Positions 2,250 to 39,174 of a stretch of DNA of 64,000 nt are shown here, one piece after another. Position numbers and translations under genes: made by a program. Under the pieces are notes generated by a model. That model did no database searches, had not been told where the DNA came from, and was given only the letters and a program-made list of their open reading frames with translations. Source of the stretch: a virus. The DNA is taken from IMG/VR virus record IMGVR_UViG_3300042890_003772, positions 307 through 64,306 of that record, one strand, 5' to 3'. Each line of letters starts with the position of its first letter. The first letter of the stretch is position 1.

Positions 2250-3266
2250 ATGAAATTATATGAATTATTTGAAGCTGAAGAATCTTCAGCACCTAAAACA
2301 AAACGATCAGCGTATGAGCAGTTGCTACCGTATAAGAATGATGCTGCTGTTTATATTAGTATGTCAAAAAACAGTAAGCCACCGATTAGCACTAAGTCAA
2401 CCGACGCTCCAGCCGGAATATATGCTTACCCGCTAAAGTCAACTTGGGCTAAGTATAATGTTGAGCAAAATCAAAACTTTGACAATTATCCGTATGCAAA
2501 CAACCACCCATATATTCATATCATAAAATTTCCACACGAAATCTTAGCTACTGATAGATATAGAAACTTAGAAAACGATATTAATGTTTTAAAAAATAGA
2601 TACTCACATTTAGTTAATCTAGATAAAGAACTTGAGCGCATTGCATACAAACAACCATTTGAAGCGTTCTGGCAATTAACAAAATACATTGCTAAAGAGT
2701 TAAGTCCTGAAAGATATCAACAACAATGGGCTAAAATTCTACTTGCTTTAAATTATAGTGGGTTTGCAGACTCTAATGAACTAATTCACGATGGTGAGCA
2801 AGTACAAGTACTGCTACTAAACAAAGACAAACTAGTTGTTCTAGATACTATTTTCAATAATGATTTTACGAAACGTAAATCAGAGTTACTGAGCATTTAC
2901 AACATTGATGCTCTTGAAGAAGCATTAGATGATAAAACTAAAAAAGTGAGTGTTATTTTAAGATCAATATCTGGTGAGTTATGTCAGAAACTTCAACGGT
3001 TGTTAGAATCAAAAGCTGCAGATCGCTCATTGTATGAATTCTTACACGGTCGTAGCGATACAGATGTTAAATTGTTATTGTTAGTATGGCTTAACGGTGT
3101 AGTAGATTTTAATAATGTCCGTACAAATCTTGCCACGTATCAGCAATCTGCGTTAAATGATAGCCCAGTAAGCTTGTTTGATTATGCTAAGCGCAACGTT
3201 AAGTTCCCATGGGTTCACGATACGCTTATTCACAATCTTGAATTATTCAAGTCAAAAGCTGGCTAG
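2250..3266 (+). CDS. Hypothetical protein with an N-terminal CTS-like signature (MKLYELFEAEE)
   Basis: 338-aa ORF with TATAAATA at 2212-2219. Its N-terminus resembles T4 internal-protein and Alt leaders. Confidence 0.55.
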   Translation: MKLYELFEAEESSAPKTKRSAYEQLLPYKNDAAVYISMSKNSKPPISTKSTDAPAGIYAYPLKSTWAKYNVEQNQNFDNYPYANNHPYIHIIKFPHEILATDRYRNLENDINVLKNRYSHLVNLDKELERIAYKQPFEAFWQLTKYIAKELSPERYQQQWAKILLALNYSGFADSNELIHDGEQVQVLLLNKDKLVVLDTIFNNDFTKRKSELLSIYNIDALEEALDDKTKKVSVILRSISGELCQKLQRLLESKAADRSLYEFLHGRSDTDVKLLLLVWLNGVVDFNNVRTNLATYQQSALNDSPVSLFDYAKRNVKFPWVHDTLIHNLELFKSKAG

Positions 3267-4957: not shown

Positions 4958-5166
4958 TTACTGTTCCTAAAGATTTCATCAAACTTAAAGTCTAACGCTT
5001 GTTGCATACGAGCAGTACTTTTAGATGGGGTGTCACGTGCAACGCTTTCTGCGTGACACATACTGCGATCGGACATAATTTGTTTAAGTTCTAGTTCTGA
5101 TATCATAGCAGATCTACTAATTTTACTATTTAAGTTTTGGTCGTTAACTACCATAGTATTCACCAT
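4954..5166 (-). CDS. Hypothetical protein
   Basis: 70-aa ORF inside an overlapping minus-strand operon. Confidence 0.4.
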   Translation of the reverse strand: MVNTMVVNDQNLNSKISRSAMISELELKQIMSDRSMCHAESVARDTPSKSTARMQQALDFKFDEIFRNSK

Positions 5167-5391
5167 TTAAAAAATAACGTTTGCATAACGTAAGAACATT
5201 TTATTTACATCTTCACGAAACTTACGAGTAATTGCAGCATTTTTGTTTATTTGTAACTGTGTAGCAAATATACCGCATTGATCGCACTCACTAAAATACG
5301 ACGGTAGCTCTTTAACTACACCTCTATGTTCAAAAATCTCTAGATCTTCAAACGATACCGCGGTATCATCTCCGCATATACTACAAAGCAT
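5167..5391 (-). CDS. Small C4 zinc-ribbon protein
   Basis: MLCSICGDD...CDQCG. Confidence 0.45.
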   Translation of the reverse strand: MLCSICGDDTAVSFEDLEIFEHRGVVKELPSYFSECDQCGIFATQLQINKNAAITRKFREDVNKMFLRYANVIF

Positions 5392-5448
5392 TCTAAACCT
5401 CTTTATAATTGATTTAAAATACTATTGTAGTATATTTTAACATAAAAA

Positions 5449-6570: not shown

Positions 6571-6609
6571 TTATGCACCTTTTGATTTAATTGATTGCTT
6601 TAAAATAAT

Positions 6610-6638
6610 ATTATAGTACAATTATAGTGTTAAGTCAA
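6610..6638 (-). promoter_or_regulatory. Consensus sigma70-type early promoter, TTGACT-N17-TATAAT
   Basis: The reverse complement reads ttaacTTGACTtaacactataattgtacTATAATattatttta, which would drive rnlA. Confidence 0.6.
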
Positions 6639-6946
6639 GTTAAATATTGTACTCTGCGATAATTCTTACGAACGTTACCTACCGTGTTCCACATGATAAG
6701 TCTTTTTGTCTCAAATACGACACATTGATGGTATAAATCATCTAAGTTATATTCAATACAGATGCACCCGTCCTCAGTAGTACAGGTACGTGTGATAGAT
6801 GCGTCTGTATACCGATCAAGCCATTGCAGTGCTCTAGCTCTCAGCGATTCATCATATAAATTAGTTAGATTATTAATATCGTCAATGTGTTGTTGCATTT
6901 GTATTCCCTTCAAATAACCTATATTCAATGCGAGATATTCCTTCAT
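6635..6946 (-). CDS. Hypothetical protein
   Basis: 103-aa ORF. Its 5' end overlaps the 3' end of the upstream kinase gene, and the true start may be the internal Met near 6898. Confidence 0.35.
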   Translation of the reverse strand: MKEYLALNIGYLKGIQMQQHIDDINNLTNLYDESLRARALQWLDRYTDASITRTCTTEDGCICIEYNLDDLYHQCVVFETKRLIMWNTVGNVRKNYRRVQYLT

Positions 6947-8003
6947 TATACATAGGTAGTGTAAACGATTTCATCATATGTAAGTATACATCATCACTTA
7001 TAGATTTACCAGCTTGACTTCTAATTTCATTGCGCCGTGCAAGTTCTGACATACCAGTTAAAAATAGTATGCACTCAACTCTATAATGTTTACCAAACTG
7101 ACCAATCCAACGACGTCTTGATTTTTTGCTCAAATTAGTCATATCGACAACTACGTTTGCATTAGTTGATTTAGCGGACTGAACTACTCTAGCAATTTCA
7201 TCATCGATAGCGGTTTTAACTTGCTTATCATTAGCTTGTAAGTGAAACGCTTCATTGTATGTAATGTTCATACGAGCTGCAATAGCTTCAAGCACGTTAT
7301 CTCTGGAGATAACAATTGTATCTGCAGGTAACGTTTCAACGTATGAAGATTTACCGCTACCAGGTAGACCACATAGTATAGTTAATCTATTTTTAGTAAT
7401 ATTAATATCAGGTTTATCAACTAACCGATCAACAATTGTTTTTGTGCGGTTAACTATTAATTCACCTAATTTAGTTCGAGCATCAGCACCTTTTGCAAAT
7501 CTACCGAGTGTGTCGCATCGAGTAATTCGACTAACATACGATAAAAACGTACGTTCACCTTCAAATATATTAAGAGCTTTTTCATCTAGCACAATGTCAT
7601 TATCTTCAATTAATACTAAATCAAATAGTAAACTGTGACCAGCTATAGTACGCAGAGTCATTATTTTATCTTCTGTTGACATATCTGTTCTATTTAATAT
7701 ATCAATCGCTAAAAACATGCTAATCGATTCATGTTGTACAAATCTAGCACGTGTTTTTTCTGGAATCTCGATACGAGCTGATGGTTTGCCGATATCATGT
7801 AGCAATGCAGCCCATTGTACAATATCATCTTCATTATATAATTCAGCTATTTTAGCCACCATAAGTGTATGAGTACTCACACGACCTTCTAGGTGATACG
7901 GGTTTAATGTAGTTGCATTAAAATGGTGATTACTGTTCTCCATATCACTCCACAATTTAGGGAATTCTATTTGCAACCACTCTACTTTTTGATTTGTGTC
8001 CAT
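6882..8003 (-). CDS. Bifunctional HD-domain phosphohydrolase / P-loop polynucleotide 5'-kinase (RNA end-healing enzyme)
   Basis: The N-terminal half has HD motifs (H...LLHDIGK). The C-terminal half has a Walker A motif (GLPGSGKSS) and a kinase-like region. It sits next to rnlA. The ATG at 8003 is preferred over the GTG at 8015. Confidence 0.6.
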   Translation of the reverse strand: MDTNQKVEWLQIEFPKLWSDMENSNHHFNATTLNPYHLEGRVSTHTLMVAKIAELYNEDDIVQWAALLHDIGKPSARIEIPEKTRARFVQHESISMFLAIDILNRTDMSTEDKIMTLRTIAGHSLLFDLVLIEDNDIVLDEKALNIFEGERTFLSYVSRITRCDTLGRFAKGADARTKLGELIVNRTKTIVDRLVDKPDINITKNRLTILCGLPGSGKSSYVETLPADTIVISRDNVLEAIAARMNITYNEAFHLQANDKQVKTAIDDEIARVVQSAKSTNANVVVDMTNLSKKSRRRWIGQFGKHYRVECILFLTGMSELARRNEIRSQAGKSISDDVYLHMMKSFTLPMYNEGISRIEYRLFEGNTNATTH

Positions 8004-8029
8004 AATAATCACCACGATAAAAAAATAAT

Positions 8030-8058
8030 ATTATAGTACACCTGCAATTATAAATCAA
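8030..8058 (-). promoter_or_regulatory. Sigma70-type early promoter, TTGATT-N17-TATAAT
   Basis: The reverse complement reads TTGATTtataattgcaggtgtacTATAATattattttt. It shares a 19-nt core with the rnlA promoter. Confidence 0.55.
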
Positions 8059-8121
8059 GTTATACGTGCATGTTATATGGAATAAATATATAATATACAC
8101 CTTAGATTTATGGAGCTATGT

Positions 8122-8376
8122 ATGCAATACGCTTTTAAGCACACAGTAACTGCTGTAAAATGGAATGGTAATAACTATCAAGCCATTTATGATATGACGG
8201 CTCAATTTAATTTAGAAAACACTCTTATATATGATGGTTCAAAATCATTATATGTAGGTGAAGAAGAGGCTGCGTTAGGTGAATACGTAGTTGTATGGCC
8301 TACTGTACCTGGTACTATTCAATCTGTGCTATACGACGAAGCATCATTTGAACATCAATTTGGAAAACTTCATTAA
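8122..8376 (+). CDS. Hypothetical protein
   Basis: ORF with GGAG 6 nt upstream of ATG 8122. Confidence 0.4.
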   Translation: MQYAFKHTVTAVKWNGNNYQAIYDMTAQFNLENTLIYDGSKSLYVGEEEAALGEYVVVWPTVPGTIQSVLYDEASFEHQFGKLH

Positions 8377-9101
8377 TATTTTCCATACCAATCAACTGGA
8401 GGAGTCTGCCCGCGTATAATATATTTACGTTCTGCAGATTTTAGACTATCAACCTGCTGCAAGCCAATAGGATTACGTATTGGACTAGTAAAGAATTGTA
8501 CTATAGCAGGCATTACAGTCGCCACCTCCTCATCTACACCTAGTATTTGCAACGGATAGTGTGCATTATTAAACACTTTTTGCATCTTTTCAATCGTTCT
8601 AGGTTTTGATTCGTGCGTATCTTTAATATACTCTGGTGGCACAAAGCGTCTACGTGATTCAGCCCGAGTTAATGATCGCTCTAATTCAGATTCTTTATAT
8701 AACATCATTACATCATAACCGTATTGACGTAGTCTACGCATACGCACGATAGTGCTATGAACATTAGATGCGGTAGTGTCAATAATAACTGGTAGCATAC
8801 TGGTTAGGTATAACTCAAGTTGTGATGACATTAACTCTTTAGTTCTATTTTGAATTGATACTGCTCCTGGAGCCTCAACTTCAGCGCTTGTACTAATAGG
8901 TACATCATGCTTCTTGCTCAAGTATTCATAAAATTTATCGTAATCTAATACGCGTGGTTTAATGCTATGTGATACAGTTAGTTCTTGAATAATATCTTTC
9001 ACGATTGTGCTTTTTCCACTAGCAGGAATACCACCTAAGAATAAGCACTTAAAAATACCTTTGTCGTAGATTCCTTCTGATAATATGTCATGCAATTTCA
9101 T
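8373..9101 (-). CDS. P-loop kinase-like protein with an N-terminal CTS-like signature (MKLHDILSEG)
   Basis: Walker A motif GGIPASGKST. Translationally coupled to the upstream ADP-ribosyltransferase gene (ATGA). Confidence 0.5.
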   Translation of the reverse strand: MKLHDILSEGIYDKGIFKCLFLGGIPASGKSTIVKDIIQELTVSHSIKPRVLDYDKFYEYLSKKHDVPISTSAEVEAPGAVSIQNRTKELMSSQLELYLTSMLPVIIDTTASNVHSTIVRMRRLRQYGYDVMMLYKESELERSLTRAESRRRFVPPEYIKDTHESKPRTIEKMQKVFNNAHYPLQILGVDEEVATVMPAIVQFFTSPIRNPIGLQQVDSLKSAERKYIIRGQTPPVDWYGKY

Positions 9102-9691
9102 GAAAGTGCCTCTTCTAAATGATCAAACCATAAGTCCATTGTGACCACGTAACAGTTATTAGCAATCATAACTTCACTACCATCTTCTAATGCTGCGTGG
9201 AGGTTCTTAGATATATATGTTGAAAGATATTGATCTAATTTTTGATAGAATTGTTGATCATATTTTTTTGCTGGATCTGCATCTTTACTAGATTCAAGCT
9301 TTGACACTGTATCGTACAAATCACCTACTTGAGGGCTCCACAAGTACTTTAATGGTCCAATAGGAAACAACACATATGCTTCACCATAAACTTCTGCAAC
9401 TTCCCAATCAGAGGTTGCAAAGATCGCATTACGGAATGGTAACCCAGCATGCTTAGTAAAGTAATCGTTAATATAATTATGAATCGTTATATTAGTATCT
9501 TTAGGACTTCTACTATCTAGTGATGGATGAATAACGGTCATTGGTGGTATATTGCTATCTTGTATTCCTCGAGATAATGGCACCCCAACGTTATTATACT
9601 CCGCAATAATTGGAGCACAATCACGTTTTAATATTGCTACAATTTCATCGATGCTATGATTATCATTATTAAGAATTTCATTTAGTTTCAT
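9098..9691 (-). CDS. ADP-ribosyltransferase, ModA/ModB/Alt-like, paralog 3
   Basis: The R (PLSRG), STS (IFATSDWE) and E (GSEVMIAN) motifs match T4 ModA (PLWRG, VVSASYD, EQEVMIP). N-terminus MKLNEIL. Confidence 0.55.
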   Translation of the reverse strand: MKLNEILNNDNHSIDEIVAILKRDCAPIIAEYNNVGVPLSRGIQDSNIPPMTVIHPSLDSRSPKDTNITIHNYINDYFTKHAGLPFRNAIFATSDWEVAEVYGEAYVLFPIGPLKYLWSPQVGDLYDTVSKLESSKDADPAKKYDQQFYQKLDQYLSTYISKNLHAALEDGSEVMIANNCYVVTMDLWFDHLEEALS

Positions 9692-10326
9692 TTTATTAAC
9701 TCCTGAACTACTTTTCCATAATCATAGATACTAACCATATAGCAATCATTTGCAAACATTATTTCGTGATCACTGGCAGTAGCTGCAAGTAAATCTTTAT
9801 TTGTATAGGTATTAATATATTGATTGAGTTTATCAAGCAGCAGCTTATTGTTGTAGTCACTAGCAGGTAAAGTACTGTCTAAACGATCCTCATCTGGATC
9901 AAACGCTGTACCATCTCCCAAGTTAGCAATTGTAGTGTCAACAACAGCAAACAGATCTTCTATATTAGGGCTCCAGATGAAATTTAATTCACCTACTGGG
10001 AACACTACGCTGACGGAACCATATCCAGCTGCACGTGGTTGATTACCTGTGGCAAATATTCCATTACGTAACGGAAAATGAAATTTTGTTTGAAACTCTT
10101 GATTTAAAAACTTATGTATTAATCTAGGCGTATCTAATGGAGTTCTATCTAATCTAGGTTTAATTAAGTTAATATGACCTGGATAGGCTTTACCGCTATT
10201 ACTACCTCTAAACAAGCAATCACCGTTATTTTGCTTTAGTATTTCAATATACGGTCCGCAATGCTGCTTAATAGTTTCAACAATATGTGATAAATCAGTT
10301 GCATCTATAACTTCATGTAATCTCAC
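9688..10326 (-). CDS. ADP-ribosyltransferase, ModA/ModB/Alt-like, paralog 2
   Basis: CLFRG, IFATGN and DHEIMFAN motifs. Paralogous to its two neighbours. Confidence 0.55.
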   Translation of the reverse strand: MRLHEVIDATDLSHIVETIKQHCGPYIEILKQNNGDCLFRGSNSGKAYPGHINLIKPRLDRTPLDTPRLIHKFLNQEFQTKFHFPLRNGIFATGNQPRAAGYGSVSVVFPVGELNFIWSPNIEDLFAVVDTTIANLGDGTAFDPDEDRLDSTLPASDYNNKLLLDKLNQYINTYTNKDLLAATASDHEIMFANDCYMVSIYDYGKVVQELIK

Positions 10327-10895
10327 GACATCACCGCATCTTTAATCATACCATAATTTTGAATCATAATACACTTATTGTTAAGCATAACTTCATGACC
10401 TGTTTGTATAGCTTTATCCAATTCATTATTTTGATACGCATCAGCTATGCTAGCAACAGCATTTATTAATGATTGTTTAGAGCTTTCAAGTGTCTCAAAG
10501 TCAAAGGTTTTATCCAATTGAACATATAAATCACTAATTTGTTTGCTCCAAATATAGTGCAATTCGCCAATTGGAAACACCGCATAAACCGGTCCGTAAT
10601 ACCGTGCATCATCATAACTGCTAGATGCAAAAACGCCATTGCGATATGGAAAACCAAATGCACGCTTGAACGATTGATTTAGTGCATCGTGTAGCACTCG
10701 AGGGGTATCAACCGGAACTCTATTTAAGTTAGGTTCTATTACATTAAAACCTTCAACGTTGGTAAATCTACTACCTTTATATCCACGAAATAATGGAGCA
10801 CCGTCAGTATGCTTTAATACTTCAATATAAGGAGCACATAACTGCTTTAATTTAGCAATATCTACATCTGGAACTGCGATTTCGTATAATTTCAT
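10323..10895 (-). CDS. ADP-ribosyltransferase, ModA/ModB/Alt-like, paralog 1
   Basis: PLFRG, VFASSSYD and GHEVMLNN motifs. N-terminus MKLYEI. Confidence 0.55.
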   Translation of the reverse strand: MKLYEIAVPDVDIAKLKQLCAPYIEVLKHTDGAPLFRGYKGSRFTNVEGFNVIEPNLNRVPVDTPRVLHDALNQSFKRAFGFPYRNGVFASSSYDDARYYGPVYAVFPIGELHYIWSKQISDLYVQLDKTFDFETLESSKQSLINAVASIADAYQNNELDKAIQTGHEVMLNNKCIMIQNYGMIKDAVMS

Positions 10896-10922
10896 TACTG
10901 TAAACTCTAAGGTATAATTGAT

Positions 10923-10930
10923 TATTTATG
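10923..10930 (-). promoter_or_regulatory. Late-promoter-like box CATAAATA (minus strand)
   Basis: Lies 26 nt upstream of the paralog 1 ATG at 10895. Confidence 0.4.
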
Positions 10931-11513
10931 CACTGAATTCTAAATTAAAGTCCATATTTTTAGTAACATTTAATTCAATGTACATTAACATCATTGCAAC
11001 ATTTAACGTGTTAGTATTTGGTATTTTAGTTGACTTAATTTTTAATAATTGAACGCGTGGATCATACGCAATAATTGTTTTAAGTTCATCTTCAACCTGA
11101 ATCACTACTTCATCATCTAACGGCTCAAACAATAATTCAGGAATAATGGATCCAAACCCAGGCATCATTACTCGACTACCTTTTATTGTATTAATATGAT
11201 TTAGTATATTTCGTTCAACTAGACTAACATCAGTAAGGGTAAATGTATTATTACCGGGATTTTCAATATTATAATTTGCTGATATAGGTGATGTTAGTCC
11301 TTGCGTATTAGTAGCTGGAAACACACCTTTTTTAATTGTACCTGAATTAAAATCGATAGTAGAAAAACCTCTATATAGTGTACCGTTATAATTAAGGTTA
11401 TTAGTACCATTCAATATACTAGTTGATTTGGTATTAGTACCTTTTACTGTTGGTGTCGCTATAAGCGATGAAAGATCGATACCCAGTGTGTTAACTGTTT
11501 GCCGTTGTGCCAT
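10926..11513 (-). CDS. gp25: Baseplate wedge protein, gp25/GPW family
   Basis: IKGSRVMMPGFGSIIPELLFEPLDDEV...YDPRV matches the T4 gp25 motif KGSRPFDPEFGCDLSDQLFE...YEPRI. Confidence 0.7.
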   Translation of the reverse strand: MAQRQTVNTLGIDLSSLIATPTVKGTNTKSTSILNGTNNLNYNGTLYRGFSTIDFNSGTIKKGVFPATNTQGLTSPISANYNIENPGNNTFTLTDVSLVERNILNHINTIKGSRVMMPGFGSIIPELLFEPLDDEVVIQVEDELKTIIAYDPRVQLLKIKSTKIPNTNTLNVAMMLMYIELNVTKNMDFNLEFSA

Positions 11514-14599: not shown

Positions 14600-14625
14600 T
14601 ACTTACCCTTATTAATTAGTGTAGC

Positions 14626-15785: not shown

Positions 15786-15801
15786 AGCTATCTCTTAGTT
15801 T

Positions 15802-15809
15802 TATAAATA
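15802..15809 (+). promoter_or_regulatory. Late promoter box TATAAATA
   Basis: Exact T4 late consensus 42 nt upstream of ATG 15851. Confidence 0.45.
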
Positions 15810-15850
15810 TAATCATATTTATTAGTTGTATCTCCGGAGTGTATAGCATA

Positions 15851-16906
15851 ATGAGACTGACAGATTATTTAAATGAAAGCGGTGACGCTGCGATCTCTGG
15901 TGGAGATATCGCTGGATTTCGTGCGCCAATGTTTTCAAAACCAATAACACGTAAGCGTAAGAAAAAGTACAAGTTGACAGAAGATAAAAAAGTTAATGAT
16001 TTTAGTAGTGTTGATGTAGTATCAAAATTACAAGGTGCAGAAAAAGCAAATGAGCTTAAACAAGATTCTGTAGCGTATGGTATAGAAGATGCTGATGGTA
16101 ATATTACAAAAGTATATGTTAGCAAAGAGCAAGATGGTGAGTTTAAACAAGCGTTAAGTAAGATATTACAAGATGAAGATCACGTTGATGTTAACGAAAT
16201 TTTATTTAACTTAAGAAACTCTTTTGATATCTTATATGTTGAGTGGCCAAAGCTACCAGAAGATGAAGAAGTTGATAATGTGCTTGATACCAAAAAAGAT
16301 GGTGATAAACCTGAGGGTGATGTTCCACCAGAGGGAGCAGAAGGTGAACTACCTGCTGAGCTACCACCGGCAGCACCTGCTGTAGATGATTCAAGCATAC
16401 TACTTAAAGTTATTGATATGTTAAAAGCGGATGCTGATTCAAAAACGGCTGAAGCAAAAGCAAAGACAGCTCAAGCTGAAGCTGAGCAAGCAAAGTTAAC
16501 TATTCAATTAACTAACACTAAAGTTAAAAATGAAGAAGATATGCTTCGTGCTGAAGAGCACTTTAAGAAGCAAGCTGAAGAAAAGAAAGAAGCGGATAGA
16601 TTGGCTAAATTAGCGAAATACCGTAATGAAGTAACTAATACTCCAACCTATGAAGGTGTTATGAATTTTAACGATATTATGAATGAAGATATTACAGCTA
16701 ATGTAAATGCAATTCAAACCAAAATTGCTGCAATATCTGTACAAAAAGCTCGTGCAAGTAAATTATATGATGATCAGATTCGTAGATTACAGCAGCAATT
16801 AGCTATGATTAATAAGCAAGCAACTGCTCGTGGAGCTGCTCAACCTGCACAGCAAACACAACCAGAACAACAACCTGCACAACAAGGTCAACAACCTACC
16901 GTGTAA
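15851..16906 (+). CDS. Coiled-coil protein with a Lys-rich N-terminus and a Gln/Pro-rich C-terminus
   Basis: ORF with GGAG at 15836-15839. Its 3' end overlaps the convergent 1236-aa gene by 11 nt. Confidence 0.5.
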   Translation: MRLTDYLNESGDAAISGGDIAGFRAPMFSKPITRKRKKKYKLTEDKKVNDFSSVDVVSKLQGAEKANELKQDSVAYGIEDADGNITKVYVSKEQDGEFKQALSKILQDEDHVDVNEILFNLRNSFDILYVEWPKLPEDEEVDNVLDTKKDGDKPEGDVPPEGAEGELPAELPPAAPAVDDSSILLKVIDMLKADADSKTAEAKAKTAQAEAEQAKLTIQLTNTKVKNEEDMLRAEEHFKKQAEEKKEADRLAKLAKYRNEVTNTPTYEGVMNFNDIMNEDITANVNAIQTKIAAISVQKARASKLYDDQIRRLQQQLAMINKQATARGAAQPAQQTQPEQQPAQQGQQPTV

Positions 16907-21148: not shown

Positions 21149-21784
21149 TTAACCAAGTTTATATTCTTGTCTTAACCATTTTTTAACTTCAGCAACTAAG
21201 TATTTTTGTGCTGATTGATCTTCGCGAACTGATTCTGCTAATGACATAACAATGCGACCAGTTTTACTTGATTCTAATGACTCATATATTGAGGATGGGT
21301 ATGCACTTGAGCAACTTGGTGTCGATACGATATCAATAGTAATTAAGTTAAATCCACTAACGATACCACTTTCGTTAACATCACCAGCACCACGGCTACT
21401 AACACCCATTTTAACGCCACTTTCAGTGATCAACACTTTAGCAATTTGACCCATTGGAGTACCTAAGATTTTTGCTTTACCAAAAACCTGATTACCTTCA
21501 AGTCTAAGATCAGTAATTACGTGACTGATACGATCACTAGAAACAACTAATGAATTTGGGTGATCTAATTCACCAAAAATACCACCATCGTTTTTAATTG
21601 ATTCGTTTAATTTATGTACGGCTGCTTGCATTTCTGCAATTGGATATATACGACCGTTTCTATTACGGACTTCTGACTCCATAAAGCAACCACTCAAGAA
21701 TAAGTTCTTACCATCGGTAGAAGCTTCTTGAATTAGGTTGCCTTGCTCGTAAGATAAGGTTTCTACTAATAGTTCTGTTTTCAT
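21149..21784 (-). CDS. gp21: Prohead core protease, T4 gp21 family
   Basis: GELDHPNS, GKAKILGTPMGQI and GVSSRGAGDV match T4 gp21 GEFNHPDS, GKAKLTDNPMGNI and GVSSRALGSL. Confidence 0.8.
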   Translation of the reverse strand: MKTELLVETLSYEQGNLIQEASTDGKNLFLSGCFMESEVRNRNGRIYPIAEMQAAVHKLNESIKNDGGIFGELDHPNSLVVSSDRISHVITDLRLEGNQVFGKAKILGTPMGQIAKVLITESGVKMGVSSRGAGDVNESGIVSGFNLITIDIVSTPSCSSAYPSSIYESLESSKTGRIVMSLAESVREDQSAQKYLVAEVKKWLRQEYKLG

Positions 21785-21940: not shown

Positions 21941-23116
21941 ATGGAACTTAATAGAATGTTACAGTTGGCCGGATTAGTTTCTGAGAGCCACGATAAGGTA
22001 GCAGAATTACCAGCTAGTGTAACTATGCTGCCAGAAAAAACAACGTTAACAGAGACTGATAAATCATCTGAATATAGTCGCTGGTTGCAATTAGCTGGAT
22101 TAGTATCTGAAAATGAGTTAGATGAGTATGCGGTTGATAATTGGCTGCTACTTGAGGGTCCAAATGAGGAGTACGCAATTGCTAATTTGGCAACACAGAT
22201 CAAAGCTGCTTATCTGGAGGATGGTGGTGCAGAAGATAAAAGTGTAAAAGAAATTGTTAAGTACATTACAGATACAACTAATGTTGGACCCAACGTTACT
22301 GCTACTGTTAATAATCCATATTTTAAATGGATTATCTCGAGATTCATAGGTACAAAAAAAGCGCCTAGAGATTTGCATATAGGGGATTTAACGACTCTTC
22401 AAACCAATCTAAAGAAGTTTGACGATAAAGCAATACGGGCTGCATTAAAGAAAGGTGGTGTAAATACTGACCTTAATAATCACACATATGCAACATTTCA
22501 AAAAGATATTGTTCCTAAATTAGACGATGCCAACAAAACAAAATTAGATAATGAACAAAAAGCTAAGGTTTACGCCGCGGGTCAAAAGCATGTTATTTAT
22601 CAAAATGTTATGGGGAAGGACGGTAAACCTGTTAAAGATGAATACGGTCATGTAATACATAATATGACTGCTATTGAAGCTGAACATACAGCTGAATCAG
22701 GTATTACTAATATCGTTGGGTCACCATCGACTAACGATACATTTCATGCATTTACAGTGAATAATAAATTTGCTTCAATGTATTTTGGTGGTGTGTTGCT
22801 TAATGATTATTATCCCAAAGCAGCTGTTGGTTGGTGTACAGGCTTACTGGGACATTCTGAAAAAGCACCTCATGTTGAACGTACACAGTTTGATACTTAC
22901 CATGGTGAAGGTAAAGGTAAGATTTATATTATCTTTACTAAACTTAAAGGTATGAAACGTCGTTTTCAATTACATATGGAAAAAGATCAATTCATGCAAG
23001 AGGATAATACTGCGATACCTAAAGAAGATATTGCTGAATTGAGTAAAATTCCAGAGTACACTGAGTTTTTGAATTTCTTAATTAAAAAATACTACCACGT
23101 ACCGGAATCAAAATAA
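21941..23116 (+). CDS. Hypothetical protein with a duplicated N-terminal motif (MLQLAGLVSE / WLQLAGLVSE)
   Basis: 391-aa ORF. Confidence 0.5.
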   Translation: MELNRMLQLAGLVSESHDKVAELPASVTMLPEKTTLTETDKSSEYSRWLQLAGLVSENELDEYAVDNWLLLEGPNEEYAIANLATQIKAAYLEDGGAEDKSVKEIVKYITDTTNVGPNVTATVNNPYFKWIISRFIGTKKAPRDLHIGDLTTLQTNLKKFDDKAIRAALKKGGVNTDLNNHTYATFQKDIVPKLDDANKTKLDNEQKAKVYAAGQKHVIYQNVMGKDGKPVKDEYGHVIHNMTAIEAEHTAESGITNIVGSPSTNDTFHAFTVNNKFASMYFGGVLLNDYYPKAAVGWCTGLLGHSEKAPHVERTQFDTYHGEGKGKIYIIFTKLKGMKRRFQLHMEKDQFMQEDNTAIPKEDIAELSKIPEYTEFLNFLIKKYYHVPESK

Positions 23117-23592
23117 TGTTATTAAACGAGATATTAAAAGATCGTGATATCCCGACTGTGCATTGGATGAATATGGGCCCAGCTCATATGGGTATGTTTG
23201 CTGTTAATCGCAATCAGTACGCTATTCAAATGATTAAAGTAGAAGAAGGTAATCCAATACATGAAGCTATCCCGGATCAAGCGCTAACGGATAACACCTT
23301 CTTTTTCTCGTTTGCTGCAATAGTAAATGGAATGCCAGTAGATACCGACACAGGTAAACATGAGGCGTTAGCGGTATTCAGTACCATTATGCAAACATTA
23401 GTTAAGTTTGTATATGATAATAAAGTAGATACGCTGTATTTTGGTTGCGCTACTGATCATGCAAAACTAAAAAGTTTGTATCAACGAATTATTACTAGAT
23501 ATTCAAACGAGCATAATTGGCAAACAGTTGCAACAACCACTGTGAATTATATGGGTGGCAATAAATTTGTATGGGTTGTAGCTAAACAATAA
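23116..23592 (+). CDS. Hypothetical protein with an N-terminal CTS-like signature (MLLNEILKD)
   Basis: 158 aa, coupled to the upstream gene by TAATG. Confidence 0.5.
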   Translation: MLLNEILKDRDIPTVHWMNMGPAHMGMFAVNRNQYAIQMIKVEEGNPIHEAIPDQALTDNTFFFSFAAIVNGMPVDTDTGKHEALAVFSTIMQTLVKFVYDNKVDTLYFGCATDHAKLKSLYQRIITRYSNEHNWQTVATTTVNYMGGNKFVWVVAKQ

Positions 23593-28236: not shown

Positions 28237-28267
28237 GGTGATTATTGTATCGATTATGGTGATGTAT

Positions 28268-28891
28268 ATGTTGTTATCAGAGTTGTTGTTAGAGACGCCC
28301 CAGTTAATTGATCCGATAGGTAATATTGGAGTTAATAATGACACCACTAATAGCTTATTGTATCGTCAATTACGCAAGAAATTCAGTAAGTTAGTGCATT
28401 CTCTAACTGATGATATATCTATTGTACGTATTGAGAATCCAAGTGGTGAGGAGTTTGATTTTGAATACATTGGATTTGATGATCAAGATAAGCGTATTGG
28501 TATGGTGTCGCGAGTAGTAGTTACTAAGGATAAAGTGCTCGGGCCATATGTATATCAATCATTTATCTGGGTTAGTGATGATTATAAAAAGCAGTTTAAA
28601 TCATGGCCTAAAAAGATAGTGTTTGAATATTTGATTCCTCGTTACAAAACAATTACCTCTGATATACTCCACACTCCAATGGGTATGAAGTTCTGGGCGC
28701 AATTAATTAGTCATGCGCTATCAAAAGGTTTACACGCGTATTATTACAATGCAGCTGGTAAACAAATTGTTAAAATTCAATCCACTAATCATTTGTCCGA
28801 ATTGCAGAAACAGTATAATATATGGGAACATGGACATACAGGTACTGATAAGCTGGTGGTTATATCATCAAAGGTATATAACGAATCATAG
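28268..28891 (+). CDS. Hypothetical protein with an N-terminal CTS-like signature (MLLSELLLE)
   Basis: The internal Met with GGTGA upstream is preferred over the ORF track start at 28238. Confidence 0.45.
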   Translation: MLLSELLLETPQLIDPIGNIGVNNDTTNSLLYRQLRKKFSKLVHSLTDDISIVRIENPSGEEFDFEYIGFDDQDKRIGMVSRVVVTKDKVLGPYVYQSFIWVSDDYKKQFKSWPKKIVFEYLIPRYKTITSDILHTPMGMKFWAQLISHALSKGLHAYYYNAAGKQIVKIQSTNHLSELQKQYNIWEHGHTGTDKLVVISSKVYNES

Positions 28892-29416: not shown

Positions 29417-31195
29417 ATGTTACTTAATGAAATTGCTACTGATATTGCTCGGGATGAAGAGAACGATATTAATACGCACACATTTAATAGTGCTGCATCA
29501 GAAAAATTAGCATCAGGTACTAAGCAAATTAGAATTGATATGACTCCAGATGATGAGGATGAATTCGAGGCTCGTACCGAAATGGTAAAAAATAGTGTTT
29601 CAAATTTTAGTGGCTTACCAGCTCACGAACGTGCTACATTAGAGTTAAGTGCAAGACCACCAGAATATGTAACTGCGATATATGCATATACATTGAAAAA
29701 AAATCCAGGTACAGTTGATGATACTTTAAAGGTTATGCGTATCATGTCTGCAGTTAAGAACAGAAATTCTAAAGAAGTGATGCCTAAAGAAGAGGTTCAA
29801 GCTTATTTGGATGCAAGTGTAGAACGTATTTTAAAGCTTACAGGTAAGTATAGTCAAAGCATGAGTAAGTACGGTAAAAATAAGCGAGCAAATGACGAAG
29901 GTGATCGAATGCATCAAATTTACCGTCAATTTTTAGCTCCATACTTTACTGGTAAGTTTAATAAGAATAGTGTTATTGTACCGCTAGGTTCAACCTCTGG
30001 ATTAGTAGGTGAGTTTGCAGAGGCTTTGAGTAAAAAAATACACGTAGATCTTGATGTAGTATCAGGCGCATTTATTAAAAATCATTATCCTAAACTAGAT
30101 TGGTATAATAAGGGTACTAAGGATTCACTAGACCGTAAGGTATTGCGCACACCTAAGTCATACACAGATGAGTTAGAGCGCAACCCGTCAATGATCGCGG
30201 ATCCAACTGTGCAAGAATGGGTTAGAAAGCTATCAACAGCTAGATCACAGCTCGCTGCTGCTATAAAAGCAAAAGCGCCAGTAGGTGAGCAAAAACCATT
30301 AAAGGAACATGTAAATTTATGTCTTAAAAATTTAAGTCAATCATTAACGCATTACATCACGGCATCTCAAGCAGCGGTAAGTGCTACACTTAAGGAGATT
30401 GTTGCGTGCCGTAAAAGATATGCATCGCTTGAAGCGTGTGTTAAATCTACAGAATACAAAAAATTGCGCGCAAAATTTAAACAAGAAGTTGCTGTAATTA
30501 GAGCAATTACGTTACCTACATACGACGTAGGTCATTTTAATGATATTAAACAAGAGCTACATACCGTATCAACTTATATTGCTGCACAGGATAGTGTTGC
30601 TGATGATATCGATGAGATTGTACAGAATGTAAATGCAATGATAGCAGCCAGAGTAAATGATGCCCCATTACAGTTGCAGAATAGAATTGATAGTAATCGC
30701 GCTAAGTTTATTAGCAGTGTATCAAAATTAATTGATAAAGCTGTTAATGAACCATTTAAAGTTCATAATTATTATGCAAACCGAGATGTAAATAACGGTA
30801 AGGCGTTAAGTGCATATATGGTGTTACATGATAAGTTGTATGATAAACTTGACGGTAAAAATATTATCTTAGTTGATGATAATATCGGAACTGGTGCTAC
30901 TGTAATTGATGCTGTAAAATCAATTTATTATGCTGGAATATCTCCACGTAATATTATTGTTATGGCACCACATTATCTCGAAAGCGGTGATAAAGAAGAG
31001 GGTACCGATAGTAGGGCAATTGCAGCTGCAAAACGTGCGTATAATACCAGAGAAGCTGAAAATACAACAGTATTGCGTCAACCAGTAAGTTCAGCTGATG
31101 TTAAAAAGCATTTGAGCAACTTAGATCAGGTGAATAAGTTAAGAAACATTAACAAAGCTGGTGCAGAAAGACTCAAGAGTAAATTAGGTCAATAA
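29417..31195 (+). CDS. Phosphoribosyltransferase-domain protein with a long N-terminal helical region and a CTS-like N-terminus (MLLNEIATD)
   Basis: The C-proximal GKNIILVDDNIGTGATVIDAV is a type I PRTase or PRPP-binding motif. Confidence 0.5.
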   Translation: MLLNEIATDIARDEENDINTHTFNSAASEKLASGTKQIRIDMTPDDEDEFEARTEMVKNSVSNFSGLPAHERATLELSARPPEYVTAIYAYTLKKNPGTVDDTLKVMRIMSAVKNRNSKEVMPKEEVQAYLDASVERILKLTGKYSQSMSKYGKNKRANDEGDRMHQIYRQFLAPYFTGKFNKNSVIVPLGSTSGLVGEFAEALSKKIHVDLDVVSGAFIKNHYPKLDWYNKGTKDSLDRKVLRTPKSYTDELERNPSMIADPTVQEWVRKLSTARSQLAAAIKAKAPVGEQKPLKEHVNLCLKNLSQSLTHYITASQAAVSATLKEIVACRKRYASLEACVKSTEYKKLRAKFKQEVAVIRAITLPTYDVGHFNDIKQELHTVSTYIAAQDSVADDIDEIVQNVNAMIAARVNDAPLQLQNRIDSNRAKFISSVSKLIDKAVNEPFKVHNYYANRDVNNGKALSAYMVLHDKLYDKLDGKNIILVDDNIGTGATVIDAVKSIYYAGISPRNIIVMAPHYLESGDKEEGTDSRAIAAAKRAYNTREAENTTVLRQPVSSADVKKHLSNLDQVNKLRNINKAGAERLKSKLGQ

Positions 31196-35168: not shown

Positions 35169-36086
35169 ATGAATGAGATTCTTGAAAAATTGCTTAACTC
35201 AGAAATTCTGAACGATGAAAGCAAAAAAGAATTAGAAGAAGCATTTAAAACTACTTTAGATGAAGCGGTCGCAGTTGCGGTTGCTGAAGCCAAAGAAGAA
35301 ACAAGTGCCCAAACTAAGATCGAATTACATGAACAATTTGCTCAACAAAAAGAATTGTTAATAGATGCTGTTGAATCTAAAGTTAATGACTTTTTGTTGC
35401 AAGAAATGGCTACATTGAAAGCTGATATCAAATCTTTCCGTGACCTTGAAGCAGAAAAAGCAATTGAAATTGCTAAAGAAAAAACCAAACTTGGCGAACG
35501 TCTTGCAAAAGACATGACTAAATTAGTTAACAAACTAGACACATTCTTAGAGATGAGAATTACTTCTGAGTTTGATGTATTAAAAGAAGACATTCTTGAA
35601 GCTAAAAAACTAGAATTTGGTAAAAAAATCTTTGAAGCATTTTTACCTGAATATAGAAAATATTTTGTTGATCCCAATGAAACGGAAGCTGCGCTTAACG
35701 AAGCCAAGATCAAAATTGACAAGCTTAGCTCTAAATACAAAAATGTTAAAAAAGAAAAAGAAGCGTTATATCGTAAAGTGAAGCTGGAAGGGGTGTTATC
35801 ACCATTAACTGGTAGACACCGTGATCTAATGGAATCGATTTTATCTAGCGTAGGGACAGAAAAACTTGAAGATGCATATAAATTATACATCAATAAAGTT
35901 CTTAAAGAATCTACTGATAAGCCGACTAAAGTGATTAAGGAATCGGCAGCGCCTGCACAAGAAGCACCGGTTACAGAAACCGTTGTAATTACAGGTGACG
36001 ATGAAACTCATGTTGTTACTGAAGCTGTTGTTGATGATTTAGCAGATACGAAGTCGTATTTTATGAAATTAGCCGGAATCGTTTGA
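35169..36086 (+). CDS. gp22: Prohead core scaffold protein, gp22-like
   Basis: Glu/Lys-rich coiled coil immediately upstream of the gp23-like gene, with N-terminus MNEILEKLLNSEILNDE. AGGAG lies 10 nt upstream. Confidence 0.65.
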   Translation: MNEILEKLLNSEILNDESKKELEEAFKTTLDEAVAVAVAEAKEETSAQTKIELHEQFAQQKELLIDAVESKVNDFLLQEMATLKADIKSFRDLEAEKAIEIAKEKTKLGERLAKDMTKLVNKLDTFLEMRITSEFDVLKEDILEAKKLEFGKKIFEAFLPEYRKYFVDPNETEAALNEAKIKIDKLSSKYKNVKKEKEALYRKVKLEGVLSPLTGRHRDLMESILSSVGTEKLEDAYKLYINKVLKESTDKPTKVIKESAAPAQEAPVTETVVITGDDETHVVTEAVVDDLADTKSYFMKLAGIV

Positions 36087-36137: not shown

Positions 36138-37499
36138 ATGAAAGAGTTATTAGAAAATTGGAGTGAAGTTAAATCAGCACTTTTGACTGGTTTATCTGAA
36201 AATAAACGCAAAATGGTTGCACCATTATTAGAAAACCAAAGAAGCCAAATGATCATGGAATCAGCTTCAACAGGTTCTACAGATGGTTCAGCAATCGCTG
36301 GTTTCCGTAAAATTATGATCCCGATGATTCGTCGTGTGATTCCTAATGCTATCGCAACAGAAATCGTTGGTGTTCAACCAATGACTGGTCCTGTTGGCCA
36401 AGTATATTCAATGCGTTATTTGTACAAAGAAGCTGTTACTAACCCAACAATCAATTCATCTTACGATCCAACAGGCGCTAACGCATCTGCAAGTATCGTA
36501 GCGAATTCAGAAGCATTTGGTAACGTTAACGCTTTACGTCGTTTCTATTCTGGTCAAGTTAACACATCTACAGTTGTTGGTTCAACTGGTACTGACGTAT
36601 TAGCTGGTGCTGCAATTGGCGCAACTGGTGCAACTGGTCAAGGCTGGGGTTCAGCATTAGACGCAGCTTCTGGTCCTAACGCAGGTGGTCATGGTTCTTA
36701 CTTAGAGGGCAATGGCGGCCGTAAAATGGGCTTAGAAATCGTGTCTCAAGCTGTTGAAGCTAAATCACGTAAATTACAAGCTAGCTGGACCATTGAAGCA
36801 ATGCAAGATTTGCAAAACCAACATGGTTTAGATATTGAAAACGAAATGACACAAGCTATGTCTGCTGAAATCGTTCAAGAAATTGACAACGAAATCATCA
36901 CTGACTTGATCTCATTAGCTGGTACAACTGCAGCTTATGATGGTTCAGTTCCTGTTGCAGCTGGCTTCTACAAACCAACATTCGTTGGTGATCGTTTAGC
37001 TAACTTAGGTGTTCAAATTAACGTTGTAGCAAACGAGATTGCACGCAAAACTCGTCGCGCAGCTGGTAATTTCATCGTATGTAGCCCAATGATTGTTTCT
37101 ACATTACAAGCAGCATCTAAATCAGTATTTGCTCCTGCTGTAGAAGGTTCATTCGTAGGTCCAAACAACACTAAATTAGTTGGTACTTTAAATGGTAACA
37201 TTAAAGTTTACAGCTACTTGTGGAACCAATCACAAGCTACTGAAATTTCTGGTACAGGTAACGATGTTATCTTAATCGGTTATAAAGGTGGTAATGGTGA
37301 AACTGATTCAGGTTACTTCTACGCTCCTTATATTCCTTTGATGAGCAGCGGTATTGTTGTTAACCCAACAACTTTCCAACCTGTAATTAGCTTGATGACA
37401 CGTTATGGTAAAGCAACATTTACCGATACAACAACATCGTTGGGCAACACAGCTGACTACTATGGTAAAATTGTTGTTTCTAGCTTAAGCTTGTTATAA
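36138..37499 (+). CDS. gp23: Major capsid protein, T4 gp23 family
   Basis: IPMIRRVIPNAIATEIVGVQPMTGPVGQVYSMRY matches T4 gp23 MGMVRRAIPNLIAFDICGVQPMNSPTGQVFALR. Confidence 0.85.
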   Translation: MKELLENWSEVKSALLTGLSENKRKMVAPLLENQRSQMIMESASTGSTDGSAIAGFRKIMIPMIRRVIPNAIATEIVGVQPMTGPVGQVYSMRYLYKEAVTNPTINSSYDPTGANASASIVANSEAFGNVNALRRFYSGQVNTSTVVGSTGTDVLAGAAIGATGATGQGWGSALDAASGPNAGGHGSYLEGNGGRKMGLEIVSQAVEAKSRKLQASWTIEAMQDLQNQHGLDIENEMTQAMSAEIVQEIDNEIITDLISLAGTTAAYDGSVPVAAGFYKPTFVGDRLANLGVQINVVANEIARKTRRAAGNFIVCSPMIVSTLQAASKSVFAPAVEGSFVGPNNTKLVGTLNGNIKVYSYLWNQSQATEISGTGNDVILIGYKGGNGETDSGYFYAPYIPLMSSGIVVNPTTFQPVISLMTRYGKATFTDTTTSLGNTADYYGKIVVSSLSLL

Positions 37500-37682: not shown

Positions 37683-38204
37683 ATGAACTTTACACAATTT
37701 TTAATCGAGTCCGAAATATCCGGACTAAAAGAACTTAAATTAAAGCGATATAAAGGTATTGTTGGGAAACCAATGATGGAATATGTCTACTTTCATCGAA
37801 ACTATATTAATAAATTTCCGCAATGGCAAGTTAATATTGTTGAGAAGATGAGCAAACTACCAGAAGACTTTAAATTTAATACTATCCGATATAATACTAA
37901 AACTAATGTAGTTACTTTTATTAACTCGCCAGATTTTGATACTGCTGATGAGCCAATAAGCGGTGATAATTATACTGTAGATAATGACGGTAATCTTAAG
38001 TTTTACAAACAACCAGCTAATCCAACAGTATGGCACAATAAATGGTTGTGGGTTATGGATGATTATCCAGGATTTGACGTCACGCAAGCAAAAGAACGTA
38101 GTGTGTTTTGGAATAAACACTTACCTAATGAACCAGGGATTAAAAAACGTATTGGTAGCTCTACGTTTTGGAATAGCTTAGATTTTAATAAGACAAGAGA
38201 TTAA
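37683..38204 (+). CDS. Hypothetical protein
   Basis: 173-aa ORF. Confidence 0.45.
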   Translation: MNFTQFLIESEISGLKELKLKRYKGIVGKPMMEYVYFHRNYINKFPQWQVNIVEKMSKLPEDFKFNTIRYNTKTNVVTFINSPDFDTADEPISGDNYTVDNDGNLKFYKQPANPTVWHNKWLWVMDDYPGFDVTQAKERSVFWNKHLPNEPGIKKRIGSSTFWNSLDFNKTRD

Positions 38205-38205
38205 T

Positions 38206-38787
38206 ATGAAATTTTTAAGACAATTATTAAAAGAAGATTTATGGCAGCACGATAATATTAATCAAACATTTGATAGCGCTGAAACTTCACTAAATCAAAT
38301 TCCAAGCACATTTAAAGTCGTTAATGGAATGAACGGATGGGTGCCAGGCACCATAAATGCTGATATCGGTGGCGGTAAAGAATTTTCAGTAGATGGAGCA
38401 GTAACGCATAAGTTTACCGTTGCATTAAAATCGGTAGGTGTAACTAACATAGTTTACGACCCATTTAATAGAACTACTGCACATAACACCGCTGCAGCTC
38501 AAACAATAAGAGATGGTAAGGCTGATACAGCAACTGTTAACAATGTGTTAAACGTTATTCAAGAACCTACTATTAGAGCTCGTGTTATTATGCAAGCGCA
38601 CAATGCTGTTAAAGATGGTGGCACAGCTTACTTTTTAATCTATCAAGGTGATAAATCTGGTCAAGGTAGAGATACCAAAAAAGGTAGATGGCAAAACAAT
38701 ATGGCTGCTAATGAATATGTAGGTGAAGTTAGTAGATTCTTTAGTCATGTTACCAAAAAAGGTAATTTAATTATAGGGCGTAAGTAA
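38206..38787 (+). CDS. Hypothetical protein (N-terminus MKFLRQLLKEDLW)
   Basis: 193-aa ORF. Confidence 0.45.
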   Translation: MKFLRQLLKEDLWQHDNINQTFDSAETSLNQIPSTFKVVNGMNGWVPGTINADIGGGKEFSVDGAVTHKFTVALKSVGVTNIVYDPFNRTTAHNTAAAQTIRDGKADTATVNNVLNVIQEPTIRARVIMQAHNAVKDGGTAYFLIYQGDKSGQGRDTKKGRWQNNMAANEYVGEVSRFFSHVTKKGNLIIGRK

Positions 38788-39174
38788 ATGTTATTAAATG
38801 AAATATTTGGATACGCAGGATCATTTGTAATTGTAAACGGTTATACATTTGATGAATCACCGCATGCAAAGTTAAGATATAACGAGCGTATTAAATCATA
38901 TAATATTAAATTGAGCGATATTGAAAATATGTTCAAGCAACTTATAAGACGTGTTGAACGTTTAGATAAAAATGATGTATCTACTAAGAATATATTCTTA
39001 TATTCTAAATCACTTATGTTACCGATCGTGCTGCAACGGATAGGAAATAAAGAGTTTATAATTAAAACATATTTGTTTATCGGTACAGATAAGAAAACAA
39101 AAAATGCACCACCTGATACCGCAAATATTGTATTAGAGCATTACGGTGAGTTGAGTTATATGGAAGTAGCATAA
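38788..39174 (+). CDS. Hypothetical protein with an N-terminal CTS-like signature (MLLNEIFGY)
   Basis: 128-aa ORF. Confidence 0.45.
   Translation: MLLNEIFGYAGSFVIVNGYTFDESPHAKLRYNERIKSYNIKLSDIENMFKQLIRRVERLDKNDVSTKNIFLYSKSLMLPIVLQRIGNKEFIIKTYLFIGTDKKTKNAPPDTANIVLEHYGELSYMEVA

Follow-up and report, generated by a model that had tools for sequence, protein, structure and literature searches.

In phage T4, IPI, IPII and IPIII (internal proteins) and the protein Alt are unrelated, non-essential late proteins that carry a short N-terminal tag, the capsid-targeting sequence (CTS) (Mullaney and Black 1996; reviewed in PMC9026906), given for T4 as MKTYQEFIAE (PMC8442874). The Ip proteins of T-even phages have nothing in common except this leader, which directs them to be packaged in the capsid (PMC12373910; PMC9026906), and the T4 prohead protease gp21 cleaves after the glutamate of [LI]-x-E (PMC9026906; PMC5694885). 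Here we analyse a 64-kb stretch from an uncultured, AT-rich jumbo myophage of ~35% GC (IMG/VR record IMGVR_UViG_3300042890_003772; hereafter the window), in which ten proteins share a similarly short N-terminal leader with the consensus M-(K/R/L)-L-x-(E/D)-(I/L/V/Y). We consider it likely that this leader is a T4-type CTS of 5-10 residues ending in a protease site, M-[KRL]-L-x-[ED]-[ILV]-(L-x-E).

As in T4, the window leader ends in a gp21-type [LI]-x-E site, gp21-, gp22- and gp23-type machinery is encoded, and the putative cargo includes an ADP-ribosyltransferase (ART)-like enzyme, as Alt is in T4. On the other hand, the leader reads M-[KRL]-L-x-E-[IL] rather than MKTYQEFIAE, and the two share only a general M-K, hydrophobic, acidic/Gln, [LI]-x-E pattern, in a peptide that offers too few residues to test homology. 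The minimum length of the predicted propeptide is five residues, against 7-19 in T4, and carriers number at least ten in 64 kb here and 24 in Agrobacterium phage Atu_ph07, against four in T4. The cargo is mostly enzyme-sized (128-592 amino acids (aa) here, up to 778 aa in Atu_ph07), whereas that of T4 consists of small basic proteins. Finally, targeting and cleavage are predictions in the case of the window leader.

Other described systems resemble the window in part. The ip loci of T-even phages, which are hypervariable (Repoila et al. 1994, cited in PMC12373910), likewise hold diverse packaged proteins with a shared leader in tandem variable arrays, with a presumed role in host take-over or anti-defence; these are loci of Tequatrovirus, whereas here the carriers belong to a distant jumbo-phage clade, are spread over several late operons and follow a lineage-dependent consensus. 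Phages phiKZ and SPN3US also package dozens of proteins, their gp21-related proteases gp175 and gp245 cut after Glu (x-x-E), and the N-terminal propeptides of their ejection and inner-body proteins have been proposed as prohead-targeting (PMC5694885). However, their motifs are A/S/G-x-E, most of their propeptides exceed 100 residues and no gp22-type scaffold is recognised (PMC5694885), whereas here we find [LI]-x-E as in T4 and a very short leader. Atu_ph07 gp53-gp63 (PMC6102473) are direct homologs of the ART-like proteins and kinase of the window, arranged in tandem, leader-bearing and present in virions, but with the leader M[KR]W.QL.E and with the kinase of gp53 joined to an ART-like domain in one protein; in the paper they appear as hypothetical structural proteins.

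A shared leader on proteins of eight families

In its gp23-type capsid protein the window phage shares 61-62% identity with Xanthomonas phage XacN1 and Stenotrophomonas phages CM1 and RAS14, 50% with Ralstonia phage RsoM2USA and ~46% with Rak2-like phages. At the DNA level no cultured phage is similar (megablast of positions 8000-20000 against a phage collection gave no match); IMG/VR contigs include the same phage, and Logan contigs include relatives with 64-82% protein identity. With gene starts picked by ribosome-binding site and promoter spacing, the pattern ^M[KLR]L.[ED][ILVY] heads 10 of the 65 window genes. These are listed first below, followed by two genes with a probable second leader type; distances are in nucleotides (nt), and slashes follow the glutamate of each [LI]-x-E.

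2250..3266, + strand: 338-aa protein, MKLYE/LFE/AEE; TATAAATA 37 nt upstream
8373..9101, - strand: Zeta-toxin/AAA_33 P-loop kinase, starts MKLHDILSE/G; Pfam Zeta_toxin E 5.7e-9
9098..9691, - strand: ART-like paralog 1, MKLNE/ILNN
9688..10326, - strand: ART-like paralog 2, GTG start, MRLHE/VIDA
10323..10895, - strand: ART-like paralog 3, MKLYE/IAVP; heads the four-gene leader operon, with the late-promoter core CATAAATA 34 nt upstream
15851..16906, + strand: 351-aa protein, MRLTDYLNE/S; TATAAATA 48 nt upstream; ortholog starts MRLTDYLKEDGE
23116..23592, + strand: 158-aa protein, MLLNE/ILKD; operon-mate of 21941-23116 (GATAAATA 40 nt upstream)
28268..28891, + strand: 207-aa protein, MLLSE/LLLE/, from an internal ATG; TATAAATA 38 nt upstream
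29417..31195, + strand: 592-aa protein with a C-terminal phosphoribosyltransferase (PRTase)-like stretch, MLLNE/IATD; TATAAATA 39 nt upstream
38788..39174, + strand: 128-aa protein, MLLNE/IFGY; last of the 37683-39174 run, 3' of the capsid protein gene
37683..38204, + strand: 173-aa protein, probable second-type leader MNFTQFLIE/SE
38206..38787, + strand: 193-aa methyltransferase-like protein, probable second-type leader MKFLRQLLKE/D

Each N-terminus listed in the initial annotation was found at its place, and we add MRLTDYLNES at 15851. That annotation had named enrichment over background as a check: stripped of its methionine, the pattern occurs 17 times at 19,929 internal positions (8.5e-4 per position), against 10 of 65 gene starts (binomial P = 3.5e-20, for a pattern chosen with the data in view). 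All nine ATG-initiated matches in the six frames head real long open reading frames (ORFs), and none is internal. To the left of the window, a further 10 kb of the same phage (L019) hold no additional leader genes. The claim of ten or more unrelated proteins stands for the number of carriers and has to be lowered for their independence. Beyond the first 12 residues, which were trimmed, similarity is confined to the three ART-like proteins (35-37% identity, E 1e-32 to 1e-43); since these are paralogous, there are eight independent families rather than ten, and they have only residues 1-6/9 in common.

A sigma-70 promoter scan was uninformative, with fewer matches than in shuffled sequence, and we scanned for the T4-type late core ATAAATA in its place. 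Of 28 such cores in the window, 21 lie 28-103 nt upstream of a same-strand gene start, and the genes behind them include those for the protease, scaffold and capsid protein as well as hub-region and fibre genes. Every one of the six leader-operon heads is preceded by a core, 34-48 nt upstream, in agreement with the late boxes described initially, and a seventh leader unit (37683-39174) lies on the same strand as the capsid protein gene and downstream of it. Judged by these promoters, the leader genes would be expressed late, along with the head genes.

Leader-bearing proteins in the virions of Atu_ph07

The strongest indication of what the leader does comes from the relative Atu_ph07, in whose virions electrospray ionisation tandem mass spectrometry detected 131 of 714 proteins (Attai et al. 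2018, PMC6102473, Table S5). We used the whole 490-kb genome (MF403008.1) and matched ORFs to the proteome by molecular mass and gene order. Every member of the ART-like tandem array gp55-gp62 begins M[KR]W.QL.E, and all 17 annotated genes that fit the strict pattern M[KR][WL].[QED]L.E encode virion proteins (Fisher P = 1.2e-13); an eighteenth leader ORF lies outside the proteomics search database because it is unannotated. With a looser pattern, the count is 24 of 24 annotated leader genes (Fisher P = 3.3e-19), and the association persists when the carriers are collapsed to 12 unrelated families (P = 1.5e-9). Eight of the leader genes come from a genome region in which virion proteins are the products of only ~10% of genes, and the known sheath, portal, capsid, baseplate and fibre proteins of Atu_ph07 have no leader.

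Three window families have leader-bearing virion homologs in this proteome. The ART-like family matches gp54-63 and gp408; the kinase corresponds to the kinase part of gp53 (tblastn E 3e-27); and the 28268 protein finds a homolog in gp672, with the start MRLIDLLEHT (tblastn E 1e-6). Neither a common N-terminus nor paralogy is mentioned by Attai et al. 2018 (PMC6102473), and our literature search returned no paper on such a leader in Rak2-, XacN1- or Atu_ph07-like phages. The proposal of an N-terminal virion signal on unrelated late proteins is supported by the 24 of 24 carriers in Atu_ph07, the late cores and the protease site, with its ten window examples reduced to eight families.

Some of the Atu_ph07 leader proteins peak in gel bands well below their predicted mass: gp53 (87 kDa) in band 9 (~21 kDa) and gp63 (41 kDa) in band 8 (~27 kDa), while gp482 (31.7 kDa) is most abundant in band 12 (PMC6102473 Table S5). 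These low bands are consistent with internal proteolytic processing.

Two side observations concern the annotation of this genome. An unannotated 92-aa ORF at MF403008.1 315248-315526 (-) carries the perfect leader MRLFDLFEKH, and the annotated start of gp407 (303755-304783, +) lies 11 codons upstream of MKLINLLEHD. Both the omission and the start look like mistakes of annotation, for which the leader could offer a correction.

Head machinery and the predicted protease site

The protease, scaffold and capsid protein that a T4-type system would call upon are all encoded within the window:

21149..21784, - strand: gp21-type prohead protease; Pfam Peptidase_S77 81.4 bits (cutoff 27), phrog_207 E 2e-56; TATAAATA 41 nt upstream
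35169..36086, + strand: gp22-like scaffold, directly 5' of the major capsid protein gene; homolog of XacN1 ORF275
36138..37499, + strand: gp23-type major capsid protein; Pfam Gp23 334.6 bits, domain from residue 53, with an N-terminal propeptide

The presence of a gp21 homolog, as first noted, is confirmed by its Peptidase_S77 score. The scaffold is assigned by position and composition, without a family match; its start had been correctly read as MNEILEKLL, from an ATG at 35169 with an AGGAG Shine-Dalgarno sequence, and XacN1 ORF275 begins MKELLEKLL. Within the scaffold we count 14 [LI]xE sites where its composition predicts 7.3, the second-ranked density of the window. In the capsid protein, residues 1-41 hold four such sites and the remaining 412 none (2.1 expected). 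This distribution over the scaffold and capsid propeptide is the pattern expected if the specificity of the protease is T4-like.

The same site is embedded in the leader. Eight of the ten leaders have L3-x-E5, and both leaders with aspartate at position 5 have L-x-E at 7-9. Of the 81 homologs of the ART-like family found in databases, drawn from many huge-phage contigs, 63 begin M-[KR]-hydrophobic and 73 have an [LI]xE inside the first 12 residues; summed over these homologs, 87 sites lie in residues 1-12, against 0-15 in each later 6-residue bin. The leader is kept in orthologs at 45-90% identity, while the neighbouring linkers diverge. Orthologs of the 2250 protein begin MKLHELFEDQQ (L004) and MRLQQLLDEVQ (L021), and all kinase orthologs fit M[KR][LI].[ED][ILV]L[SN]EG at their start (MKLYEVLSEG, MRLHELLSEG, MRLAEILSEG, MRLVELLNEG, MKIVDILNEG).

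We envisage the following sequence of events. Late promoters would co-express the leader proteins with the scaffold, protease and capsid protein. The leader would dock the cargo on the gp22-like scaffolding core of the prohead, the scaffold being its presumed docking partner; once the shell has assembled, the Peptidase_S77 protease, presumably the enzyme that removes the leader, would cut after the glutamate of [LI]-x-E and free mature enzymes in the head. Like Alt and Ip1-3 of T4, the cargo would then leave with the DNA at the next infection. Docking, cleavage, location in the head and ejection are all inferred. The window cargo would comprise at least eight families: three ART-fold-like paralogs, the Zeta/AAA_33 kinase, the PRTase-like protein and several of unassigned function.

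Next to the protease gene, at 20716-21096 (+), lies a gene with a late-promoter box upstream for an acidic 126-aa protein with a Glu/Asp/Ser-rich repeat (DEMSDEDDEMSDED...); XacN1 ORF298 occupies the equivalent position. The window protein probably belongs to the prohead core, as an analogue of T4 gp67/gp68.

The leader-bearing families

The kinase is the most securely assigned member of the set. Its Zeta_toxin score of 36.1 bits (cutoff 22.3) bears out the initial kinase call; AAA_33 scores 31.4 bits (cutoff 27), and a Walker A motif, GGIPASGKS, occupies residues 23-31. Sequence comparison places it solidly in the Zeta-toxin/AAA_33 family.

The three neighbouring proteins had been annotated as ADP-ribosyltransferases. 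They are paralogs. Of the candidate catalytic residues, R41 (in Y-R-G) and E173 do not vary among the paralogs of the window and Atu_ph07 and reach at least 90% conservation in a 71-sequence alignment; the family has an F-x-T-[ST] motif, also read as F-[AC]-T-[SG], with the first Q/E of [QE]-x-E absent. On the other hand, the family has no match in Pfam, NCBIfam or PDB sequences, all 81 homologs lack Pfam domains, a Foldseek search of the model against the PDB found nothing, and in the BFVD the family matches only itself and not T4 Alt, to which it has no detectable similarity. ADP-ribosyltransferase identity is plausible but unproven, and weakly supported. By tblastn, the family occurs in Atu_ph07, Salicola phage SCTP-2 and RsoM2USA.

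In the AlphaFold2 model of this family, built on the 71-sequence alignment (mean predicted local distance difference test (pLDDT) score 92), residues 1-10 have a mean pLDDT of 57 and most of the remainder exceeds 90; a first model from a 6-sequence alignment (pLDDT 52) was dropped. The order along the protein is a conserved leader, a variable linker of ~10 residues and a conserved domain. We considered the leader as a part of the ART-like fold and rejected this, given its low pLDDT, the variable linker and the presence of the tag on unrelated folds too.

Gene arrangement in this operon is compact. The stop of paralog 3 overlaps the start of the next gene, paralog 2, whose GTG start at 10326 overlaps the upstream stop as GTGA; orthologs of paralog 2 have an ATG start and begin MRLHEILEPS. 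The ART-like protein and the kinase are separate adjacent genes in the window and in RsoM2USA and are fused in Atu_ph07 gp53 (MF403008.1 39484-41820), a 778-aa protein with an ART-like N-terminal domain joined to a Zeta-toxin kinase, which suggests that the two work together.

The 29417 protein was first described as having a PRTase domain. Local matches do fall at residues 448-526, to UPRTase (22.7 bits, cutoff 27), PRTase-CE and phosphoribosyl pyrophosphate (PRPP) synthetase (ribP_PPkin, 23.9 bits, cutoff 113), but all are sub-threshold, and we retain only the term PRTase-like. For the 2250 protein profile searches gave no family match, and for the five leader families other than the kinase, ART-like and PRTase-like proteins no function could be assigned from family searches. 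The start of the 28268 gene cannot be the GTG at 28238, because this codon abuts the TATAAATA box.

Downstream of the capsid protein gene, the 37683 and 38206 proteins probably carry a second leader type that resembles the F-K-Q-F-L-x-E of RsoM2USA and many family homologs, judging by their N-terminal residues. The 38206 start had been grouped with the main leader as a related form; its likeness is rather to this second type of other lineages. The same protein has a Methyltransf_23 match below threshold. The 23116-23592 protein matches the C-terminal half of phrog_16075 and the 37683-38204 protein its N-terminal half, and the pair looks like a split phrog_16075 gene whose halves each bear a leader.

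A further recurring motif was noted. The operon-mate at 21941-23116 (+) encodes a protein that starts MELNRMLQLAGLVSE and internally repeats WLQLAGLVSENE, with the motif ..[RK][LM][KL].LAG[LI]..; among Atu_ph07 virion proteins, gp111 begins MDIERLKILAGLENS and gp257 MNIDKLKKLAGIKKD, and the scaffold (35169-36086) ends ..YFMKLAGIV. Possibly this LAG[LI]-type motif is another tag, for assembly or targeting.

Leader type follows the phage lineage

When the same protein families are compared between phages, the leader type tracks the phage lineage and not the protein family:

Window: ART-like MKLNEIL; kinase MKLHDIL
RsoM2USA: ART-like MNQTFKQFLTE; kinase (adjacent gene) MTTFKEYLLE
Atu_ph07: ART-like MRWHQLIE; kinase-containing gp53 MKWNDLNE

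In RsoM2USA, neighbouring genes begin MRLKQFLME, MKFSDYILE and MKLLEIATD. Such a pattern would result from a docking partner common to the leader proteins of each phage, and it argues against both simple inheritance and a signal at the mRNA level. We tentatively raise the wider possibility, which we hold with less than even confidence, that the leader is a general packaging code across the Rak2-, XacN1- and Atu_ph07-like supergroup, with lineage variants that co-evolve with scaffold and protease, such that proteins acquiring it are loaded into the head.

Points against a capsid-targeting role, and alternative explanations

Several considerations weigh against a T4-type CTS. The window phage is uncultured and the virion evidence comes from its relative Atu_ph07, whose particles were purified with polyethylene glycol and whose proteome includes likely contaminants such as RecA-like protein, single-stranded DNA-binding protein and ribonucleotide reductase. 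Cleavage of the leader is a prediction from its sequence. The leader regular expressions were set post hoc, after inspection of the data, which applies to the enrichment P values. A propeptide of five residues (M-K-L-x-E) is shorter than any T4 CTS (Alt 7, IPs 10-19), and XacN1 is almost leaderless over 41 kb around its capsid protein gene, where only ORF296 (MKIQNILSEDF) qualifies. Lastly, the ART/kinase operon lies directly downstream of the hub and gp25 genes, which makes a location in the tail conceivable, and the Atu_ph07 proteome was obtained from whole virions, with head, tail and whiskers merged.

These last two points lead to the first alternative, in which the leader would bring proteins into some non-head part of the virion, for example as cargo of the baseplate hub or tail tube, or into the hair and whisker structures. 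The operon does follow gp25-like and Phage_base_V hub genes on the same strand, and Attai et al. suggested that the Atu_ph07 cluster of coding sequences (CDS) 31-76 encodes novel structural (whisker) proteins (PMC6102473); the proteome is blind to location. Yet the leader embeds the [LI]-x-E of a head protease, a motif that elsewhere in the window is concentrated in the scaffold and capsid propeptide; the cargo is enzyme-like (kinase, ART-like, PRTase-like) and not fibrous; known tail, baseplate and fibre proteins have no leader in either the window phage or Atu_ph07; and other leader genes of the window adjoin the capsid protein and protease genes. We consider a non-head signal unlikely.

More doubtful still is the idea that the leader is a regulatory propeptide, or a degradation or chaperone tag, that keeps enzymes inactive or engages a phage Clp system, its presence in virions being incidental. 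Zeta-type kinases and ARTs are toxic, so zymogen-like control would be plausible, Atu_ph07 encodes ClpX, ClpP, ClpB and an adaptor, and the low-mass bands of gp53 and gp63 would fit processing of this kind. However, a flexible tag of 5-9 residues that lies beyond the folded domain would hardly inhibit eight unrelated folds, an association with virions in 24 of 24 cases is difficult to dismiss as incidental, and in T4 one kind of tag serves both targeting and processing.

We give very little credence to the view that the shared start is a translation-initiation or mRNA signal of A/U-rich early codons, or a preferred N-terminal helix, with no role in targeting. The genome has ~35% GC, the codons AAA, TTA, AAT, GAA and ATT are A/U-rich and the leader genes are all late; but the residues are fixed while the codons vary synonymously (TTA, TTG, CTA, CTG and CTT for leucine, GAA and GAG for glutamate), which indicates selection on the peptide, and for this reason a nucleotide-level signal was rejected as the origin of the leader. 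Moreover, the leader is absent from the late genes of highest expression (capsid protein, fibres, hub), the GC-richer Atu_ph07 keeps an analogous one with Trp and Gln, and there the motif perfectly predicts virion membership. Least probable of all is that the common N-terminus is a now functionless relic of shared ancestry or a mobile 5' segment that illegitimate recombination has spread: the ART-like genes do form a tandem set of three paralogs and T-even ip loci are recombination hotspots (PMC12373910), but the window leaders have no nucleotide-level identity, they are conserved between orthologs whose adjacent linkers diverge, and their type co-varies with phage lineage across unrelated families.

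Implications of a putative packaged enzyme set

Should the leader indeed be such a packaging code, the implications would reach beyond this one phage. Dozens of enzymes would be injected per infection, including arrays of a hitherto unrecognised ART-fold family, Zeta-type kinases and PRTase- and methyltransferase-like proteins, an order of magnitude above T4. The first-strike proteins for host take-over and anti-defence of jumbo phages would become predictable, and a catalogue of packaged proteins could be drawn up from sequence for uncultured phages, including those on metagenomic contigs. About one fifth of the 'unknown structural proteins' of Atu_ph07 would then be packaged cargo and not building blocks. 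The large, uncharacterised ART-fold-like family, tandem-amplified and sometimes fused to a Zeta kinase, stands as a set of candidate injected effectors. From an engineering perspective, such short tags could serve to load foreign proteins into large-capacity capsids, as the T4 CTS does already. What sets the system apart is its scale, its enzyme cargo and the fact that the leader predicts virion membership for every annotated carrier gene in Atu_ph07.

Neighbouring genes

Other genes of the window merit a brief description. After the capsid-protein operon comes a giant ORF of 3461 aa (39289-49674, +) with a GATAAATA box upstream, and downstream of it fibre-like paralogs start MPTITNNT, MTVTVTNN and MPTVIDNK. 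A 1028-aa baseplate hub/spike protein (11513-14599, -) combines a Phage_base_V OB domain with three MgtE_N repeats (E 3e-34) and FliG_C-/FliG_M-like stretches, unusual domains in a tail spike. Among the baseplate genes lies a putative aspartyl protease (15117-15785, -; RimB/Zn_protease, retropepsin-like), which is kept in the relative L004. Adjoining the leader-kinase operon is an RNA-repair-like cassette (4025-8003, -) with an RlaP nucleotidyltransferase, a T4 Rnl1-type RNA ligase and an HD plus AAA_33/KTI12 kinase-phosphatase, the family marks coming from orthologs.

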